A stretch of 64,000 bases of DNA from Heptranchias perlo (lineage: Eukaryota), in NCBI RefSeq assembly GCF_035084215.1, contig NC_090347.1:30194001-30258000 (forward strand), read 5' to 3'. The translations under genes and the position numbers were made by a program. How positions within the stretch are numbered: position 1 is the stretch's first letter; each line of letters opens with the position of its first letter. Of the stretch, positions 5,424-57,408 are shown piece by piece. The notes under the pieces were generated by a model, which saw only the letters and a list, made by a program, of their open reading frames with translations, was not told the origin of the DNA and ran no database searches.

Positions 5424-7615
5424 CTCAATAAAAATACTCAATTGGAGGAGGGCCAATTTCCATGGGATGAGAACAGATCTGGCCCGGGTAAATTGGAATT
5501 GAAGACTGGCAGGCAAAACTGTAAATGAACAGTGGGCAGCCTTTAAGGAGGAGATGGCTCGGGTATGATCTAGGCACATTCCCACGAGGCAGAAAGGTAG
5601 GGCAACTAAAGCCAGAGCTCCCTGGGTGACAAAAGAGATAGTGAGTAAGATGAAGCAGAAAAAAGGGGCGTATGACAGATGTCAGGTTGACAACACAAGT
5701 GAGAACCAGGCAGAATATAGAAAGTTCAGAGGGGAAATAAAAAAGGAAATAAGAGGGGCAAAGAGAGAGTATGAGAATAAACTGGCAACCAACATAAAAG
5801 GGAATCCAAAAGTCTTCTACAGGCATGTAAACAGTAAACTGGTAGTAAAAGGAGTGGTGGGGCTGATTTGGGACCATAAAGGAGGTCGACTCGTGGAGGC
5901 AGAGGGGATGGCCGAGGTTCTAAATGAGTACTTTGCATCTGTCTTTACCAAGGAAGAAGATGCTGCCAGAGTCTCAGTAAAGGAAGATATAGTTGAGATA
6001 GTGGATGGGCTAAAAATTGATAAAGAAGAGGTACTTGAAAGGCTAGCTGTACTTAAAGTAGATAAGTCACCCGGTCCGGATGGGATGCATCCTAGGTTGC
6101 TGAGGGAAGTAAAGGTGGAAATTGCGGAGGTACTGGCCATAATCTTCCAAGCATTTGTAGATACCGGGGTGGTGCCAGAGGACTGGAGAATTGCAAATGT
6201 TATACCCTTGTTCAAAAAAGGGTGTAAGGATAAACCCAGCAACTATAGGCCAGTCAGTTTAACCTCAGTGGTGAGGAAACTTTTAGAAACGATAATCCAG
6301 GACAGAATTAACGGTCACTTGGACGAGCGTGGATTGATTAGGGAAATTATGTTTAACTAACCTGATAGAGTTTTTTGATGAGGTAACAGAGAGGGATGAT
6401 TAGGGCAATGCAGTTGATGTGGTGTATATGGACTTTCAAAAGGCGTTTGATAAAGTGCCGCACGGTGGGCTTATCATCAAGATTGCGACCCGTGGAATAA
6501 AGGGGGCAGTAGCAACATGGATATAGAATTGGCTAAGGGGCAGGAAACAGAAAGTAGTGGTGAACAGTTGTTTTTCAGACTGGAGGGAGGTGTACAGTTG
6601 GTGTTCCCCATGGGTCAGTGCTGGGACCACTGCTTTTCTTGATATATATTAATGACTTGGACTTGGGTGTACAGGGCACAAATTCAAAATTTGCAGATGA
6701 CACAAAACTTGGAAGGGTAGTAAACATTGAGGAGGATAGTGATAGACTTCAAGAGGCTATAGACAGGCTGGTGGCATGGGCGGATACGTGGCAGATAAAA
6801 TTTATCGCAGAAAAATGCAAATTGATACATTTTGGTAGGAAGAACGAGGAGAGGCAATATAAACCAGAGGGCACAACTTTAAAAGGGATATAGGAACAGA
6901 GAGATCTGGGGGTATATGTGCACAAATTGTTGAAGGTGGCAGGGCAGGTTGAGAAAGCGGCTAAAAAAGCATACGGGATCCTGGACTTTATAAATAGAGG
7001 CATAGAGAACAAAAGTATTGGAGTCATGAGGAACCTTTATAAAACACTGGTTCGGCCACCACTGGAGTATTGTGTCCAGTTCTGGGCACCGCACTTTAGG
7101 AAAGGTGGGAAGGCCTTAGAGAGGGTGCAGAAGAGATTTACTAGAATGGTTCCAGGGATGAGGGGCTTTAGTTACGTGAATAGACTGGAGAAGCTGGAGT
7201 TGTTCTCCTTGGAATGGAGATGGTTGCGAGAAGATTTGGTAGAGGTATTTAAAATCATGAAGCATCTAGACAGAGTAGATATCGAGAAACTGTTCTCATT
7301 GGTGGAAGGATCAAGAACCAGAGGATTTAAGGTGATTGGCAAAAGAACCAAAGGTGACATGAGGAAAAACTTTTTTACACAGCGAGTGGTTAGGATCTGG
7401 AATGCACTGCCCGATAATATGGTGGAGGCAAATTTAATCATAGCCTTCAAAAGGGAACTGGATAAGTACTTGACAGGAAAAAATTTGCAGGGCTACGGGG
7501 AAAGGGCGGGGGAGTGGGATGAGCTGGATTGCTCTTGCAGAGAGCTGGCGTGAACTCGATGGGCCAAATGGCCTCCTTCCATGCTGTAACTTTTCTATCA
7601 TTCTATAATTCTATG
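5424..7615 (+). mobile_element. 5'-truncated CR1 LINE with disrupted ORF2 (reverse transcriptase pseudogene)
   Basis: KSPGPDGMHPRLL, DWRIANVIPLFKKG..NYRPVSLTS, YMDFQKAFDKV, LGPLLFLIYINDL, FADD and FFTQRVVRIWN across broken frames with stops; TTCTAT tail. Confidence 0.95.
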
Positions 7616-29600: not shown

Positions 29601-30205
29601 AAATGCTCACTGTTTGGGCAAGCCTTCATTCTAACACACTCTGGTACAGCCCAGTGAAACACAAAGGGCCCGATTTTAGCAGCCGGTCTCGGGTGCGTTC
29701 TCGGCGGGGGGGCCTCTAAAATCCCGAAATCGAGGAGCGGGACCGGATCGCGCCTCGATCCCGCCCACTTCCGAGTTCCACGCTGACGTGCGGGGGTGTG
29801 TGCGTAGCCCCCGCTGGTGGGAATCCCGCAGGCAATTAAAGCCAGCGGGGTTCCACTTGAGTGTATTTATCTAGGTATTTCAGGTCATTAAATGACCTGA
29901 TTGAGCTGTTTATTTAACAAGTGTGGGATTTTACGGTGAAATGAGACTGTTTCCCATACTGGGGGAAACACTCACACTGCCAACGGACGTGTTGCAGCCA
30001 GCAGCCTGTGGCAGCTGCCAAGGTGCATTCCACAGGTGAGGGGGGAGAGCCTTCACCAACGCAGGAGGACACTCCGTAACATTGGGCAACGCCTGCCCTC
30101 CACCACCCTCCTCCAAGCAAGAAGATTCACCAGCGTAGAAGTGCAACCCTTGTGTGAGGACACACTTTTCTAGCATGCACAACCCCGCAGACCTACACCT
30201 GCCAG

Positions 30206-31432
30206 ATGGGTGCTGTGTTGACATCCTCGGAGGACGAATAGCATGACCAGCCTCAGCAGCCTCGCAGTCCACGCCGTCCGCCTCAGAGACGTGCATCCCC
30301 ACAACACGGTGCTGTGGCACATCCACCTGCACAGCAGGATGGAGGGCATCCGCAGAGAGAGATGCGTCACAGGAGGCACTACCCTCCGCACAGGGTCTAC
30401 AGACTGAGGCTCAGCTTCATGGACCTCTCTGAGCAGCAGTGCATACGTAGGCTCAGAGTCACTCGCCAGGTAGTCGCCGACATCTGCAGCCTCCTTAATG
30501 ACGAGCTGCTCCCGGATGGACCAAGCAGCATCTTCTTACCCGTCGCCATCAAAGTCACCACTGCCCTCAACTTCTTCGCCTCCGGATCCTTCCAGGGTGC
30601 CACGGGGGACATCACCGGGGTCTGTCAGTCGTCTGCACACAAGTGCATAAGGCAGGTCACCGATGGGTTGTTCCGCAGGGCCTCGAACTACATCAACTTC
30701 GCCATTGATGAGCGCAGCCAGACGGAGAGGGCGGTTGGATTCCATGCTGTGGCTGGCTTCCCACGGGTGCAGGGTGTAATCGATTGCACCCACATAGCAA
30801 TACGGGCATCTCCACATGAGCCAGGGCTGTTCATCAACAGGAAAGGGTATCACTCCATGAACGCGCAGCTCATTTGTGACCACCGCCAGAGATTCCTACA
30901 CGTGTGCGCCAGATACCCTGGCAGCTGCCATGATGCCTTCGTCCTCAGGGAGTCCACCGTCCCGCCCCTCTTCCACGCACCCAACGCCGGCAACGGCTGG
31001 CTCCTCGGCGACAAGGGATATCCCCTGCACACGTGGCTTATGACACCTCTGAGGAACCCCATTACCGAGCCGCAGCGTCGATATAATGACAGACACATTG
31101 CTACCACGTCTACAATTGAGCAGGCTATGGGGCTGCTCAAGATGCGCCTCAGGTGCCTTGATCGTTCCGGGGGAGCGCTCCAATACACACCACTCCGAGT
31201 GGGACGAATTATAGTTGTCTGCTGTGCCCTGCATAACATGGCACTACAGAGAGGGGTGCCGCTGGAGGAGGCCCCATGCACACCCGCCACCCACATTGAG
31301 GACGACAATGAGGAGGAGGAGGAGGAGGAAGAGGAAGAGGGAGAGGAGGAGGAACGACCCATGGGCCGAACACCGGCTCACCTGCGTGCTCGTCAGGCCA
31401 GGGAGGCACTCATATGCCAACGGTTCTCCTAA
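30206..31432 (+). CDS. Harbinger DDE transposase (HARBI1-like, DDE_Tnp_4); in-frame TAG at codon 12, next in-frame ATG at 30362
   Basis: ALNFFASGSFQ, GFPRVQGVIDCTH, NRKGYHSMNAQLICD, YPGSCHD, WLLGDKGYP, IEQAMGLLKMR, CCALHN and an acidic tail. ATG 30206 is in frame, with TAG at 30239-30241. Confidence 0.95.
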
Positions 31433-31671
31433 CATCACACTGTGTGAGGCGTTCACATGTCATAACGTGCACAGACGAGGGTCCATACAGGCTCCCTCCA
31501 CAGAAGAGTGGTGCCTGTACACCTGCACCCACTGGATTATGCCCAATGGGTGGGACGGGTGGTCGTCGTCATGATGAGGCGCACGGAAGGGACATATTGC
31601 ACAAGCCGCAGAATTATGGACAAGAGGTGGCTGCATTGGTGAGAAAAAGTGAGTTTATTTTGTGTTGACAT

Positions 31672-33576
31672 TCAAATAGTGGAAATAAAAAAAAAATAGA
31701 CAAACACCCTGGTGCAATCCCTGTGTGTTCGGGAACCCCTACGTGGTGCTACCCCTGTGGCTCCAGCAGAGGTGGTGGCAGGTTGCTCCTGTTCGTGCCC
31801 TGACCGGGTAGATGCTTTGGGCCGACGCCCCCTGGGTTTCAGTGCCCGTGAGGGCACCTCCACAGGCTGCTCCTCCTGCACCTGTGCAGGGGCAGACTCG
31901 GCCACCTGGAGAGGATGGACTATTGCGGGCACTGGTTGAGAGGGGGGCAACGGGTGAGACGTGGGGGCGCCTTGAGTAGCGTCCACACTTCCATTTCCCC
32001 GTTCACCATCTTCCCTCTCATGGCCAAGGCCCACATCACCCCTTCCACCCTGCTGGACGGCAGTTTGGATGACGTGGGTGAGACCTTGCAAGGCCACCTC
32101 CAATGTATCTGTCAACCTGTTTATGGCGGCAGAATGTTGCTCACCCTGAATCCGAACAGCCGTTGTGAGGGCCTGGATGGACTCATTGGTGAGCTGTGCG
32201 TGACGCTCAAGGGAGGCTAGCCTGTCCTCCACCGCAGACGTTCCCACACCTACCCGCGACACTATCTCAGAGATGCCTTCACGTCCCTGCAACACTATCT
32301 CGGCGATACCCTCCTGCATCTGTGCCACCATTCCCCTCATGCAGGAGTTGGACTCCTCCATCCTCCGTGCGATTGTGGAGAGTGCGCGTGGCACCTCTCC
32401 CAGTACCTCAGCAATGTTCTGGTGCCCCTCGACGACTCTCCCTTTGACAGGTGGCCCCCTGGGTTCAGCATCTGGGTCCGGCTGAGCAGAGCCTGGAGAA
32501 GAGTGCTCCCACCGACGCGGACCCTCCGCGGCTGACCCTGCCACCAGGGTCTGCTCATGCTCACGTGTGCGCGGTGACTCACCATGTGCAATCCCAACTA
32601 ACTGAGGGGGGGGACCCACCGAGGTGTGTGTATCTGCGCTGGTGGATGCAAGGCTCATGTGTGACGATGCACCCTCAGAGACGGGCATGTCCTCTGAGGA
32701 ATCCCCCTCAACCGAAACGTCGATCGCAGACGGCCCTGCAAGAGAACAGAGGGCAATATCAGGCATGTGTCCAAATGTGGCGGTGCGGCATATGCCATGT
32801 GATGCTAAGATCATTCGCGCTCATGAGTGATGAGTGCCAGCTTTCCCTTACCGGCCGTTTCGACAGAACCAGACTCGCCATCCACCACTGACAGGCAATG
32901 CAGCGTGCGGCTGATCTCCAGTGCCTCGACCTCGGCGTCTGTCAGGGCCACCTCGTGTGGCGGGCCCCCTCCGGTGCGTGCCCTATCGCGTGCGTTCCTG
33001 CACCTCTTCTCCTGTGAGGGCAAAACACAAAAAACGTTATTGAGTGATGATTACAATGTGAGACGCTTCAAGCATTGGTGTGAGTGGGTTGAGCATGTGC
33101 CAGATGGATGGGAGGATGCGTGTGCCACATGGCCATCCCATTGTATGGGCATTGGGGTGTGTGGTAGTGGTCGAGTGGGGACAGGGACGGTGGGTACGTG
33201 CAGGCACTGTGAGGATGATAGTTGGGTGGCTGTGAGGATTGGTGCGGGAGCGCAGTGCTGTCAGTGGAGATGGGGTTGTGAGGTGGTTGAGGTGATGTGG
33301 AAGACGGAGTGAGGCAGAGTGCGTTAGTGTACTCACTTTCCCGGACCTGGTGAGGTCATTGAATCTCTTGCGGCACTGCATCCAAGTGCGGGTGGTGTTG
33401 CCCCTGCTTGTGACCTCCGCGGCCACCTCCTCCCATGCCCACTTGGTGGCGCTGCCAGGGCACCTCCTTCCATCACTGGGGAACAGCGTCTCCCTCCTCA
33501 TGCGGACCCCGTCCAGCAGCACCTGGAGGGCGTGGTCCGTGAAGCGGGGAGCAGCCTTACCCCTGCGCTCCTCCAT
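31672..33576 (-). CDS. Harbinger Myb/SANT DNA-binding protein; 3 exons join(33576-33337, 33011-32852, 32735-31672), 487 aa
   Basis: APRFT..AWEEVA..RTWMQCRKRFNDL trihelix motif; donors GTGAGT and GTAAGG; acceptors TCACAG and TTGCAG; phases 0 and 1 give one open frame; RTGGG motif in exon 2 and a coiled-coil-like region in exon 3. Confidence 0.9.
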
Positions 33577-33625
33577 CCTTCATGGACTGTAGGTTGTGGC
33601 TGGAGGGGCTTTGGTGGACTGCCCC

Positions 33626-33671
33626 TTTAAATAGAGCTCCAACATCGCTCAGACGTCAATGCGCATGCGCA
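33626..33671 (-). promoter_or_regulatory. Putative promoter of the Myb/SANT gene
   Basis: TATTTAAA (33626-33633, - strand) ~50 bp upstream of the ATG, CRE-like TGACGTCT (33651-33658) and NRF1-type palindrome TGCGCATGCGCA (33660-33671). Confidence 0.55.
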
Positions 33672-34291
33672 GGCCGCCGGCACGCAGCTGAGAAGCGCGG
33701 AACCCGTAACTGCCAGCTAATTACATCAATCATCCCGCGATCGCGTGCGCAACGCACTCAGTTTGGCCGGCGCGTTTTCCTCGAGCCCGACTAACCACCT
33801 GCTGCCAACCCGCACCCCTGGTAAAATCGGGCCCAAAGACACTGTGCCACCGCACCCACCAACTTCACGGTGCCAGCTTTAACATTGAAAGAGTTACACC
33901 ATCATGGCTACATTTCAAGAAGAACATGCTGTTCTCATGTCATGGAATGCTATGTGGGTCAGTCATTGTACTTAGCCAGCCTTGTACAGCAATCACATGC
34001 ACCATCTCAGTCTCTGAGAACTGGCTAATTCTTCCCAAAAACATCACCTCAATATTTTATGGTGCAGTTCTTTAATAATAGGGCAGTATTTGAAATGATA
34101 TCTTTTAGTCTTTAATCTTAAACTAAGTTCCCTGCCCAAGCTACCTCAGGAAGTATTCCCATATAACACCCACTGGCCATGGACCTAGAATTATTTCTTC
34201 ATAAATCTGTGGTGTTGATGCCACAGTTCTTAATGCTTTAATGTAAACCACTGATGCTGAAAAAGACGACTAAAAGACAAAAAAAGGGGCA

Positions 34292-45234: not shown

Positions 45235-46578
45235 GGGAAGCTTTTAGAAACAATAATCCGGGACAAAATTAATAGTCACTTGGACAAGTGTGGATTAATA
45301 AAGGAAAACCAGCACGGATTTGTTAAAGGCAAATCACGTTTGACTAACTTGATTGAGTTTTTTGATGAGGTAACAGAGAGGGTTGATGAGGGCAATGCGG
45401 TTGATGTTGTCTAAATGGACTTCCAAAAGGGGTTTGATAAAGTGCCACATAATAGGCTTGTCAGTAAAACTGAAGCCCACGGAATAAAAGGGGCAGTGGC
45501 AACATGGATACGAAATTGGCTCAGTAATAGGAAATAGAGGGTAGTGGTGAATGGTTGTTTTTCGGATAGAGGAAGATATACAGTGGTGTTCCCCAGGGGT
45601 CGGTACTGGGACCACTGCTTTTCTTGATATATATTAATAACTTGGACTTGGGCGTACAGGGCACAATTTCAAAATTTGCAGATAACACAAAACTTGGGAG
45701 TGTAGAAAACAGCGAGGAGTATAGTGATAGACTTCAAGAGGACATAGACAGGCTGGTGGAATGGGTGACACGTGGCAAATGAAATTTAACACTGAGAAGT
45801 GTGAGGTGATACATTTTGGCAGGAAGAACCTGGAGAGACAATATAAGCTAAAGGGTACAACTCTAAAGGAGTGCAGGAACAGAGAGACCTGGGGGTATAT
45901 GTACACATGTCGCTGAAGGTGGCAGGTCAGGTTGAGAAAGTGGTTAAGAAAGCCGGGATCCTGGGCTTTATAAATAGAGGCATAGAGTACATTATGTTGA
46001 ACATTTATAAAACACTTGTTCGGCCACAATTGAAGTATTGTGTCCAATTCTGGACACCGCACTTTAGGAAGGATGTGAAGGCCTTAGAGAGGGTGCAGAA
46101 AAGATTTACTAGAATGGTTCCAGGGATGAGGGACTTCAGTTACATGGATAGACTGGAAAAGCTGGGATTGTTCTCCTTAGAGCAGAGAAGGTTGAGAGGA
46201 GATTTGATAGAGGTGTTCAAAATCATGAAGCATCTAGACAAAGCAAATTAAGAAAAACTGTTCCTACTGGCGGAAGGTTCGTGAACCAGAAGACACAGGT
46301 GATTGGCAAAAGAACCAAAGGCAACATGAGGAAAAACATTTTTACTCAGCGAGTAAAGCTGGTTAGGATCTGGAATGCACCGCCTGAAAGGATGGTGGAA
46401 GCAGGGTCAATTGTGGCTTTCAAAAAGGAATTCGATATGTACTTGAAGGAAAAAAAATTGCAGGGATACGGGGAAAGAGTGGGGGAGTGGGACTAGCTGG
46501 ATTGCTATTGCAGAGAGCCGGCAAGGGCTCGATGGGCCAAATGGCCTCCTTCTGTGCTGAAACCATTCTATGATTCTA
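45235..46578 (+). mobile_element. 5'-truncated CR1 LINE (RT pseudogene), same subfamily as 5424-7615
   Basis: QHGFVKGKS, GVPQGSVLGPLLFLIYIN, YCVQFW, IFTQRV; ATTCTATGATTCT tail. Confidence 0.93.
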
Positions 46579-49102: not shown

Positions 49103-49920
49103 ATCCAGGCTTGGGCTCATAAGTGGCAAGTAACATTCGCGCCAGATAAGTGCCAGGCAATGACCATCTCCAACAAGAGAGAGTCTAACCACCTCCCCTT
49201 GACATTCAACGGCATTAGCATCGCCGAATCCCCCACCATCAACATCCTGGGGGTCACCATTGACCAGAAACTTAACTGGACCAGCCATATATATATACTG
49301 TGGCTACAAGAGCAGGTCAGAGGCTGGGTATTCTGTGGCGAGTGACTCACTTCCTGACTCCCCAAAGCCTTTCCACCATTTACAAGGCACAAGTCAGGAG
49401 TGTGATGGAATACTCTCCACTTGCCTGGATGAGTGCAGCTCCAACAACACTCAAGAAGCTCAACACCGTCCAGGACAAAGCAGCCCGCTTGATTGGCACC
49501 CCATCCACCACCCTAAACATTCACTCCCTTCACCACTGGTGTACAGTGTCTGCAGTGTGTACCATCCACCGGATGCACTGCAGCAACTCGCCAAGGCTTT
49601 TTCGACAGCACCTCCCAAACCCGCGACCTCTACCACCTAGAAGGACAACAGCAGCAGGTACATGGGAACAACACCACCTGCACGTTCCCCTCCAAGTCAC
49701 ACACCATCCCAACTTGGAAATATATCGCCGTTCCTTCATCGTCGCTGGGTCAAAATCCTGGAACTCCCTTCCTAACAGCACTGTGGGAGAACCTTCACCA
49801 CAAGGACTGCAGCGGTTCAAGAAGGCAGCTCACCACCACCTTCTCAAGGGCAATTAGGGATGGGCAATAAATGCCGGCCTCGCCAGCGACGCCCACATCC
49901 CATGAACGAATAAAAAAAAG
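49103..49920 (+). mobile_element. LINE-B 3' fragment
   Basis: Closely similar to 15050-15845 and 56620-57408; poly(A) end. Confidence 0.92.
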
Positions 49921-55207: not shown

Positions 55208-57408
55208 CATGTATAGTGGTTATGTTACCAGAGTAGTAACCCAGAGGCCCGGACTAATAATCCGGAGTCATAAGTTCAAATCCCGCCACAGTAGCTGGGG
55301 AATTTAAATTCAATTAATTAAGTAAAATTAGGAATTTTAAAAAAACTAGTATCAGTAATGGTGGTGCCCATGATACCAGATTGTTGCAAAATGTCCTTTC
55401 ACTAATGCCCTTTAGGGAAGGAAACCTGCCGTCCTTACCCGGTCTGGCCTATATGTGACTCCAAATCCACAGCAATGTGATTGATTCTTAATCGCCCTCT
55501 GAAATGGCCTAGCAAGCCACTCAGTTGTACAATCTCGCTACAAAAAGTCATAATAAGAATAAAACCGGATGGACCACCCGACATCGGATCACCAGGCACC
55601 AGACACGATAAAGGCAAACCAAGCCCAGTCGACCCTGCAAAGTCCTCCTCACTAACATCTGGGAGAGCTTTCCCACAGACTAGTCAAGCAACAGCCTGAC
55701 ATAGCCATACTCACAGAATCATACCTTTCAGCCAACATCCCTGACTCTTCCACCACCATCCCTGGGTATGTCCTGTCCCACCGGCAGGACAGACCCACCA
55801 GAGGTGGCGGTACAGTGATATACAATCAGGAGGGAATGGCCCTGGGAGTCCTCAACATTGACTCCGGACCCCATGAAATCTCATGGCACCAGGTCAAACG
55901 TGGGCAAGGAAACCTCCTGCTGATTACCACCTACCGCCCTCCCTCAGCTGATGAATCAGTACAGCTACCACACTGGAATCTACTGAGTGGAAATGTGGAA
56001 AATTGTCCAGGTATGTCCTGTCCACAAAAAGCAGGACAAATCCAATCTGGCCAATTACCACCCCATCAGTCTACCCTCAAGCATCAGCAAAATGATGGAA
56101 GGTGTCGTCGACAGTGCTATCAAGCAGCACTTACTCACCAATAACCTGCACACCGATGCTCAGTTTGGGTTCCGCCAGGACCACTCAGCTCCAGACCTCA
56201 TTACAGCCTTGGACCAAACATGGACAAAAGAACTGAATTCCAGAGCTGAGGTGAGAGTGACTGCCCTTGACATCAAGGCAGCATTTGACCAAGTGTGGCA
56301 CCAAGGAGCCCTAGTAAAATTGAATTCAATGGGAATCAGGGGGAAAACTCTCCAGGGGCTGGAGTCATACCTAGCACAAAGGAAAATGGTAGTGGTTGTT
56401 GGAGGGCAATCATCTCAGCCCCACGACATTGCTGCAGGAGTTCCTCAGGGCAGTGTCCTTGGCCTAACCAGATTCAGCTGCTTCATTAATGACCTTCCCT
56501 CCATCATAAAGTCAGAAATGGAGTTGTTCGCGAAATGGGATTGCACAGTGTTCAGTTCCATTCACAACCCCTCAGATAATGAAGCAGTCCGTGTCTGCAT
56601 GCAGCAAGACCAGGACAACATCCAGGCTTGGGCTGATAAGTGGCAAGTAACATTCATGCCAGACAAGTGCCAGGCAATGACCATCTCCAACAAGAGAGAG
56701 TCTAGCCACCTCCCCTTGACATTCAACGGCATTACCATCACCGAATCCCCCACCATCAACATTCTGGGGATCACCATTGACCAGAAACTTAACTGGACCA
56801 GCCACATAAATACTGTGGCTACAAGAGCAGGTCAGAGGCTGAGTATTCTGCGGCGAGTGACTCATCTCCTGACTCCCCAAAGCCTTTCCACCATCTACAA
56901 GGCACAAGTCAGGAGTGTGATGGAATATTCTCCACTTGCCTGGATGAGTGCAGCTCCAACAACACTCAAGAAGCTCGACACTATCCAGGATAAAGCAGCC
57001 CGCTTGATTGGCACCCTATCCACCACCCTAAACATTCACTCCCTTCACCACCGGCGCACTGTGGCTGCAGTGCATCTACAGGATGCACTGCAGCAACTCG
57101 CCAAGGCTTCTTCAACAACACCTCCCAAACCTGCGATCTCTACCACCTAGAAGGACAAGGGCAGCAGGCGCATGAGAACAACACCACCTGCACGTTCCCC
57201 TCCAAGTCACATACCATTCCTTCATCGTCACTGGGTCAAAATCCTGGAACTCCCTACCTCCCAGCACTGTGGGAGAACCTTCATCACACGGACTGCAGCG
57301 GTTCAAGAAGGCGGCTCGCCACCACCTTCTCAAGCGTAATTAGGGATGGGCAATAAATGCTGGCCTTGCCAGCGACACCCACATTCCATGAACGAAAGAA
57401 AAAAAATT
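55208..57408 (+). mobile_element. LINE-B copy retaining both ends: tRNA-like 5' head, APE endonuclease start, internal deletion, RT domain, poly(A)
   Basis: KVLLTNIW, QQPDIAILTESYL, IPGY..HRQDRPTRGGGTVIY, TYRPP (APE); ALDIKAAFDQVWH and GVPQGSVLG (RT); catalytic FADD corrupted to FAKWD. Confidence 0.93.

Follow-up and report, generated by a model that had tools for sequence, protein, structure and literature searches.

The closest described relatives of the transposon reported here are zebrafish Harbinger3_DR and Harbinger3N_DR, rice Ping, Pong and mPing, and the NuwaI and NuwaII families. In such elements a Myb-like protein binds the ends as well as the transposase, which it brings into the nucleus, and transposition needs the two proteins together (PMC9392472; PMC2836001). 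Two intact open reading frames (ORFs) have been recorded in 11 NuwaI and 22 NuwaII families across eukaryotes (PMC4482050), an extinct case is described in the anole (PMC3014272) and a transferred burst in sea kraits (PMC8872380). Elements of the PIF/Harbinger (PHIS) superfamily are given as absent from sharks by Han et al. (2015; PMC4482050); a second report, with none in the elephant shark, urged a look at further cartilaginous fish (PMC9179366). Here we describe a two-gene PIF/Harbinger element at positions 29666-33834 of a 64,000-nucleotide stretch of the Heptranchias perlo genome (RefSeq assembly GCF_035084215.1, contig NC_090347.1, positions 30,194,001 to 30,258,000 of the forward strand; 'the window' below is this whole stretch), together with the family to which it belongs. 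We are fairly confident of an overall reading in which the window copy is likely dead, the newest subfamily keeps its genes open and was likely mobile recently, and the family has been made up of successive subfamilies.

The shark family shares with Harbinger3_DR and Harbinger3N_DR a DDE transposase with a Myb-like partner, a target-site duplication (TSD) of 3 bp and a long palindromic target. Its likeness to NuwaI and NuwaII lies in the two ORFs, terminal inverted repeats (TIRs) that start with GGG and a length of about 4.2 kb (PMC4482050), and that to Ping, Pong and mPing in the presumed two-protein requirement, the presence of non-autonomous partners and the 3-bp TSD (PMC2836001).

Anatomy of the element and decay of the window copy

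Membership of the PIF/Harbinger (PHIS) superfamily follows from the DDE transposase gene, the Myb/SANT gene, the short TIRs and the 3-bp TSD, all of which are present in the following arrangement (positions in the window, with strand).

29666-33834: full-length PIF/Harbinger element with two genes, bounded by 17-bp TIRs and an AAA duplication
29656..29665, +: GAAACAC, the target site's left half, followed by the AAA duplication of 3 bp (29663-29665)
29666..29682, +: left TIR, 17 bp, beginning GGG
29683..29800, +: left subterminal region, changed repeatedly between subfamilies, with the window-type motif at 29718-29735
30206..31432, +: Harbinger DDE transposase gene, 408 codons, with a stop at codon 12
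30239..30241, +: premature TAG at transposase codon 12, unique to the window copy among 30 copies
30782, 31010 and 31118, +: transposase catalytic residues D193, D269 and E305
31672..32735, -: exon 3 of the Myb/SANT partner, its frame extended to 31672 by a 24-nt deletion (31727/31728)
32736..32851, -: predicted intron 2, GT..AG, at a junction to which the database gene models P0121 and P0123 align collinearly
32852..33011, -: exon 2 of the Myb/SANT partner
33012..33336, -: predicted intron 1, GT..AG, from splice dinucleotides and the P0121/P0123 alignment
33337..33576, -: exon 1 of the Myb/SANT partner, trihelix DNA-binding domain (PF13873, E 1.9e-9)
33577..33817, -: Myb upstream and right subterminal region, fast-changing between subfamilies
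33818..33834, -: right TIR
33835..33844, +: AAA, the right copy of the duplication, then GACACTG, the target site's right half

Much of what an earlier note on this DNA had read from its letters alone is borne out, including the Harbinger identity, the two-gene design and the recent activity of the family. The TIRs (29666-29682 and 33818-33834) are complementary at 16 of 17 positions and are flanked on either side by AAA; the transposase retains its three catalytic motifs, IDCTH (D193), GDKGY (D269) and IEQ (E305); and CpG dinucleotides are indeed largely undecayed, their observed/expected ratio being 0.63 within the element and 0.29 in the remainder of the window (GC content 59% and 42%, respectively). 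The transposase matches the Pfam profile DDE_Tnp_4 (PF13359) at E 9e-33, and the catalytic residues are shared by 53/65 (D193), 59/65 (D269) and 47/66 (E305) of its homologues; a search against solved structures gave no match at E up to 0.1. For Myb exon 1 the Pfam match is Myb_DNA-bind_5 (PF13873; E 2e-9), and exons 2 and 3 have none. The predicted Myb protein is 78-79% identical, over 465-467 aligned residues, to the gene models P0121 and P0123 of a sister family, whose alignment crosses both predicted junctions without a gap, and all four splice dinucleotides are retained in 106 of the 108 family copies sampled below. Contigs of runs X5 and X6, which are RNA only by guess, continue unspliced across the predicted splice sites, with no splice joint among the joints listed. 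There is no second copy of the element in the 64-kb window.

Homologues of the transposase are named 'putative nuclease HARBI1' in the database, as would suit a domesticated host gene pair like HARBI1/NAIF1. Such a pair is ruled out by the TIRs, the TSD, a copy number in the hundreds with copies dispersed, the stop codon in the window transposase and the neutral decay of private Myb variants described below, and we assign it a virtually nil probability.

By itself, the window copy is an ordinary decayed insertion, and the description of it as near-intact and young has to be given up. Transposase codon 12 is TAG, where all 29 other copies compared have Q; the family start lies at 30206, and the homologues likewise begin Met-Gly. 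Five further changes fall at conserved positions (P202S, S296R, R301T, I308M and F315L), at which the young-copy residue is kept by 56/64, 29/64, 49/66, 47/66 and 60/66 homologues, respectively; R301 falls within what we take to be the 'YREK' signature of IS4/IS5. A 24-nt deletion between 31727 and 31728 has removed the family Myb stop together with the basic C-terminal tail. The spliceable 487-residue Myb/SANT gene reported earlier is thus half right: its GT-AG junctions do yield 487 residues, but this length is a read-through, the family protein having 476. The window copy lies 3.0% away from the newest subfamily, and its closest relative among the copies sampled differs from it at 102 bases. 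Judged from these lesions, it is likely dead and immobile. Contigs of run X1 bridge its left junction at depth 63 and cover the right flank (33838-34280) at depth 27, and no empty-site joint is found among the joints listed. The copy could be autonomous and active in its own right with a transposase that begins at the next Met (residue 53), for which the frame is open (30242-31432), with the DDE triad, the TIRs and the splice sites kept; we consider this very improbable in view of the codon-12 stop, the five conserved-position changes, the loss of the basic Myb tail and the lack of a close twin among the copies scored.

Family size, young copies and target choice

The genome-wide check of copy number and divergence proposed in the earlier note reveals an intact, near-identical young group. 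Exact 20-mer matches to the element ends in the 3.25-Gb assembly (G000) number 1,346 on the left and 1,512 on the right, against 0 for the reversed controls, and at least 213 left ends are of the newest type. Ends were surveyed in the first 148 Mb of one contig (C1), where 92 left ends are listed: 24 have a right-end partner 4.0-4.5 kb away (23 distinct elements, a nested pair using one right end), 3 have one at about 3.35 kb and 33 have one at about 2 kb, the other 32 lacking a partner. Rough extrapolation from C1 suggests some 500 full-length copies genome-wide. All 40 C1 pairs that were fetched have a 3-bp TSD, and both ORFs are open in 13 of the 23 distinct full-length copies, a sample biased to young copies. 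The set analysed further comprises 108 full-length copies (the 23 from C1 and those closest to the window copy, to a young copy and to an old copy, numbering 30, 28 and 27, respectively), four duplicate loci having been removed beforehand.

The youngest group consists of 47 copies within 0.6% of one of them (L031), and both genes are open in 45. Over 4,204 bases, its two most similar copies have 2 differences and a pair has 11 on average. Thirty-four matches to a young-copy query round to 100%; the best matches to two older-copy queries are at 97% and 95%, without a near-identical twin. Harbinger3_DR, the best-studied Harbinger of a vertebrate, was rebuilt from a consensus (PMC3016246; PMC2836001; PMC9392472), whereas the shark copies have both ORFs open naturally. 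Because such copies are abundant, the reconstruction from consensus foreseen in the earlier note is unnecessary.

Insertion is flanked by a 3-bp TSD at 111 of 125 loci, and these 111 sites define a palindromic target, GACAC-NWN-GTGTC, with the middle 3 bp duplicated and agreement of 52-85% per flank position. The corresponding target of Harbinger3_DR is AAACACCWGGTCTTT (PMC3016246), from which the shark site differs in a central triplet that is mostly A/T-rich, CWG occurring in 9 of the 111. The context C-NNN-G, a likeness to NuwaI and NuwaII, is present at 52 sites, but the CWG duplication published for NuwaI is confined to those same 9 and the TNA of the C-TNA-G rule for NuwaII to 8 (PMC4482050). 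TAA or TTA, as in Ping, Pong and mPing, accounts for just 7.

Fifteen of the 111 insertions share a single site within a repeat, a long interspersed nuclear element (LINE) presumably of the CR1/L2 type, in its reverse-transcriptase frame (RVT_1, E 2e-13). The site is a near-perfect target palindrome and has been hit in both orientations (L002, L005, L013, L025, L032, L043, L044, L050, L052 and L054, and further L080, L102, L110, L118 and L124). The flanks of some 30 loci (for example L020, L022, L026, L048, L094 and L117) lie within or adjoin another Harbinger-related element; such nested or adjoining insertions offer a possible route for end swaps of the kind seen in L125, L128 and L129, whose left ends are foreign.

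Recent movement was examined by an empty-site test at one young locus, L072, in the contigs of runs X1 and X2 from one sample. There, an empty-site contig in each run consists of the left flank, one AAT and 30 letters, 28 of which match the right flank, and this empty site occurs nowhere in G000 within 2 mismatches. Contigs of runs X9 and X10 do not reach the L072 flank. L072 is likely a heterozygous, and thus polymorphic, insertion; a collapsed paralogue is a possible alternative, as is precise excision, which is usual in the superfamily and would leave a clean empty site (PMC2836001).

Several points count against recent movement. The L072 flank is partly tandem repeat, and the filled-junction contig is at half depth (7.2 against 14.5) with fewer than 31 letters per side. 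No two of the 47 youngest copies are identical, and at the mutation rate of the epaulette shark, 7e-10 per generation (PMC10587355), even the closest young pair would be about 3e5 generations apart. The same rate gives about 2e6 generations for the mean young-pair difference and about 2e7 for the age of the window copy. The borrowed rate may be too low for these copies; equally, what is young in percent may be old in years, and 'recent' is not 'now'. The family might on these grounds be finished, its newest burst old in years through slow shark mutation and the empty allele an ancient polymorphism or a collapsed paralogue. This would accommodate both the lack of identical copies, with the mean of 11 differences and its 2e6 generations, and the 2 of 30 letters at which the L072 empty contig departs from the assembly flank. 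It is less easily reconciled with an empty site at the sole young locus tested, with no paralogue in G000, or with the at least 213 newest-type left ends and the two open ORFs of most young copies, and we regard it as a credible but somewhat doubtful account. That the newest subfamily was mobile recently is likely.

Probable succession of subfamilies, and selection

From the tree we named groups C, B, A, D, W (that of the window copy), E, F and Y, with several copies in none. When the young group is collapsed, the 62-tip tree reaches a Colless index of 1000, whereas the highest value among 5,000 Yule trees is 437, and changes in the ends and proteins are nested along the resulting ladder. Proteins of the sister family (n=2) match the older (C) state 25 times and the newest (Y) state 4 times, and the ladder therefore runs from C to Y. 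Identity to the sister family falls along it in most regions, and private change likewise decreases (Spearman 0.73).

Evidence for selection was sought in variant-frequency classes and in differences between groups, after exclusion of CpG columns and with private non-coding changes as the neutral standard (w = dN/dS, the ratio of nonsynonymous, N, to synonymous, S, rates). Myb variants found in 5 or more copies give N49/S62 and a w of 0.29, whereas private ones give N293 plus 15 stops to S100 and a w of 1.14 (shared against private, Fisher p 2e-10); Myb variants common to many copies are under purifying selection. The transposase signal is weaker, with a w of 0.29-0.45 for shared against 0.74 for private variants (p 0.03). 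An earlier test on 53 copies had given p 5e-6 for Myb and, for the transposase, 0.75 over the whole gene and 0.11 over the core.

Trees of LINE-1 (L1) elements are ladder-shaped. The shark family resembles LINE-1 both in this and in showing selection on shared, not private, variants. LINE-1 combines cis-preference with purifying selection; the mechanism of DNA transposons is argued to leave no room for it, and these elements are described as neutral within vertebrate genomes, with purifying selection only across transfers (PMC7070016). The shark element being a DNA transposon, any equivalent of cis-preference must be indirect.

A number of observations run counter to a simple succession under selection. 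For fixed group differences in the transposase, w values of 0.37-0.79 do not fall significantly short of neutrality (p 0.06-0.4), and even the private variants of this gene have a w under 1 (0.74). The copies were picked by similarity or exact ends, not at random. The four-gamete test is failed by 15-28% of informative site pairs, rising with distance, so there is recombination among subfamilies and the descent drawn by the ladder is not wholly clonal. Finally, the four or five oldest groups have tips of similar length (about 1.3-3%), but the trunk separates them by up to about 11%, a mismatch that a host clock leaves unexplained. In a host that mutates slowly, the trunk might be stretched by error-prone gap repair while copies are made.

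These last features also bear on whether the ladder and its low dN/dS arose in this genome at all, or were imported as diverged subfamilies by repeated horizontal transfer or by conversion from an unsampled relative. Purifying selection is expected in transfer, and the rule of within-genome neutrality would therefore stand. A trunk far longer than the tips between the older groups is what import would produce, and so are the very uneven rates: fourfold-site divergence reaches 0.42 in Myb exons 1-2, compared with 0.09 over intron 1 and 0.045 for the transposase. The element ends diverge by 0.14-0.26 and, with the 5' Myb exons, are the fastest-changing parts between subfamilies, private change being flat across the element. 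The recombination signal is in keeping with import too, real chimeras being present among the copies, and a vertebrate is known to have received a Harbinger element by transfer (PMC8872380). Through either shared ancestry or transfer, family members also occur in run X9, whose label names another organism; they are about 3.5-6% away from the window copy in its longer contigs, and the flanks have no cover. Against import, the step differences between groups are dispersed over the whole element and not gathered in single tracts; 113 sites have changed two or more times, against 40 expected, and 42 have three or more states; and in exon 3 the old letter matches the sister family 20, 12 and 16 times at the first three steps, the new letter only 4, 4 and 3 times. 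Sharks and rays supply all of the best 47 transposase homologues, with identities of 58-76% for the leading ones, and the fall of private change along the ladder is a further difficulty. The sister family of P0123 was considered as donor of the new alleles and rejected; it behaves as an outgroup. Import as a whole thus retains real weight, albeit as an account that we think rather less than probable, and we prefer succession within the family.

Related elements and biological meaning

The 2-kb class has an interior only 75-80% and 65-68% alike to the autonomous family and therefore comes from a related family; it differs in this from mPing, the non-autonomous partner not being a simple deletion of the autonomous one. 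Its motif occurs 1,874 times genome-wide. The left ends of 14 sampled copies (L057-L070, on C1; nearest pair 2.7% apart) follow the C-to-W end types. Classified genome-wide by left motif, 6 of the 2-kb elements are of W type and 0 of E, F or Y type, compared with 83 W-type and 213 F- or Y-type autonomous left ends. These counts fit a capture of autonomous ends that continued until W and then ceased, which does not imply that old ends are immobile. The 3.35-kb class (L054-L056, on C1) joins the left 2.24 kb of the autonomous element to the right 1.14 kb of the 2-kb element. Its three members are chimeric transposase-only elements with an identical junction in all 3, and 8 further matches also stop near base 2240. 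There is, in addition, a second large Harbinger family (L130-L149), which is 83-85% identical to the young copy, has 7-11% internal diversity and keeps Myb exon 3 open in many copies.

Three gene models (P0118, P0122 and P0124) seemingly join Harbinger exons to host genes, the partners being pirin, a sialyltransferase-like gene and a PF05903 protein, by exon capture or annotation error. Elsewhere in the window are LINE-like fragments with open frames of up to 387 codons (55987-57147, 14846-15346, 49276-49854, 5569-7550 and 45236-46578), called by eye and self-similarity only.

By analogy with Harbinger3_DR and Ping, the spliced Myb/SANT protein would bind the element ends and would both import the DDE transposase into the nucleus and recruit it to those ends, and the transposase would then excise the element and insert it at a palindromic site. 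Mainly the newest subfamily may be copied efficiently at any time, with older copies probably silenced or bearing ends that mismatch the current Myb protein; intact elements alone would then leave descendants, much as in LINE-1. One may go further and suppose a LINE-1-like persistence, in which a single autonomous line keeps replacing itself, its ends and Myb protein changing together against silencing and non-autonomous parasites, and in which intact elements have the advantage and the newest form still jumps, as an unreconstructed two-protein system, into a 13-bp palindromic target; we offer this tentatively, as an extension that we think rather unlikely.

Searches of literature other than subscription journals, Repbase and Dfam turned up neither this family nor an L1-like lineage of DNA transposons. 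What is new here is the ladder of successive subfamilies among 108 copies, with purifying selection on shared Myb variants, in a lineage of animals from which surveys had reported PHIS elements to be absent, whether sharks as a whole (PMC4482050) or the elephant shark (PMC9179366). The value of the locus lies in the evolution of the family and its testability, not in the window copy. Natural copies with both genes open, together with one apparently polymorphic insertion, make the mechanism and target choice assayable with native proteins, and the dated series of subfamilies with purifying selection on Myb provides a direct test of the rule that DNA transposons evolve neutrally within a genome.

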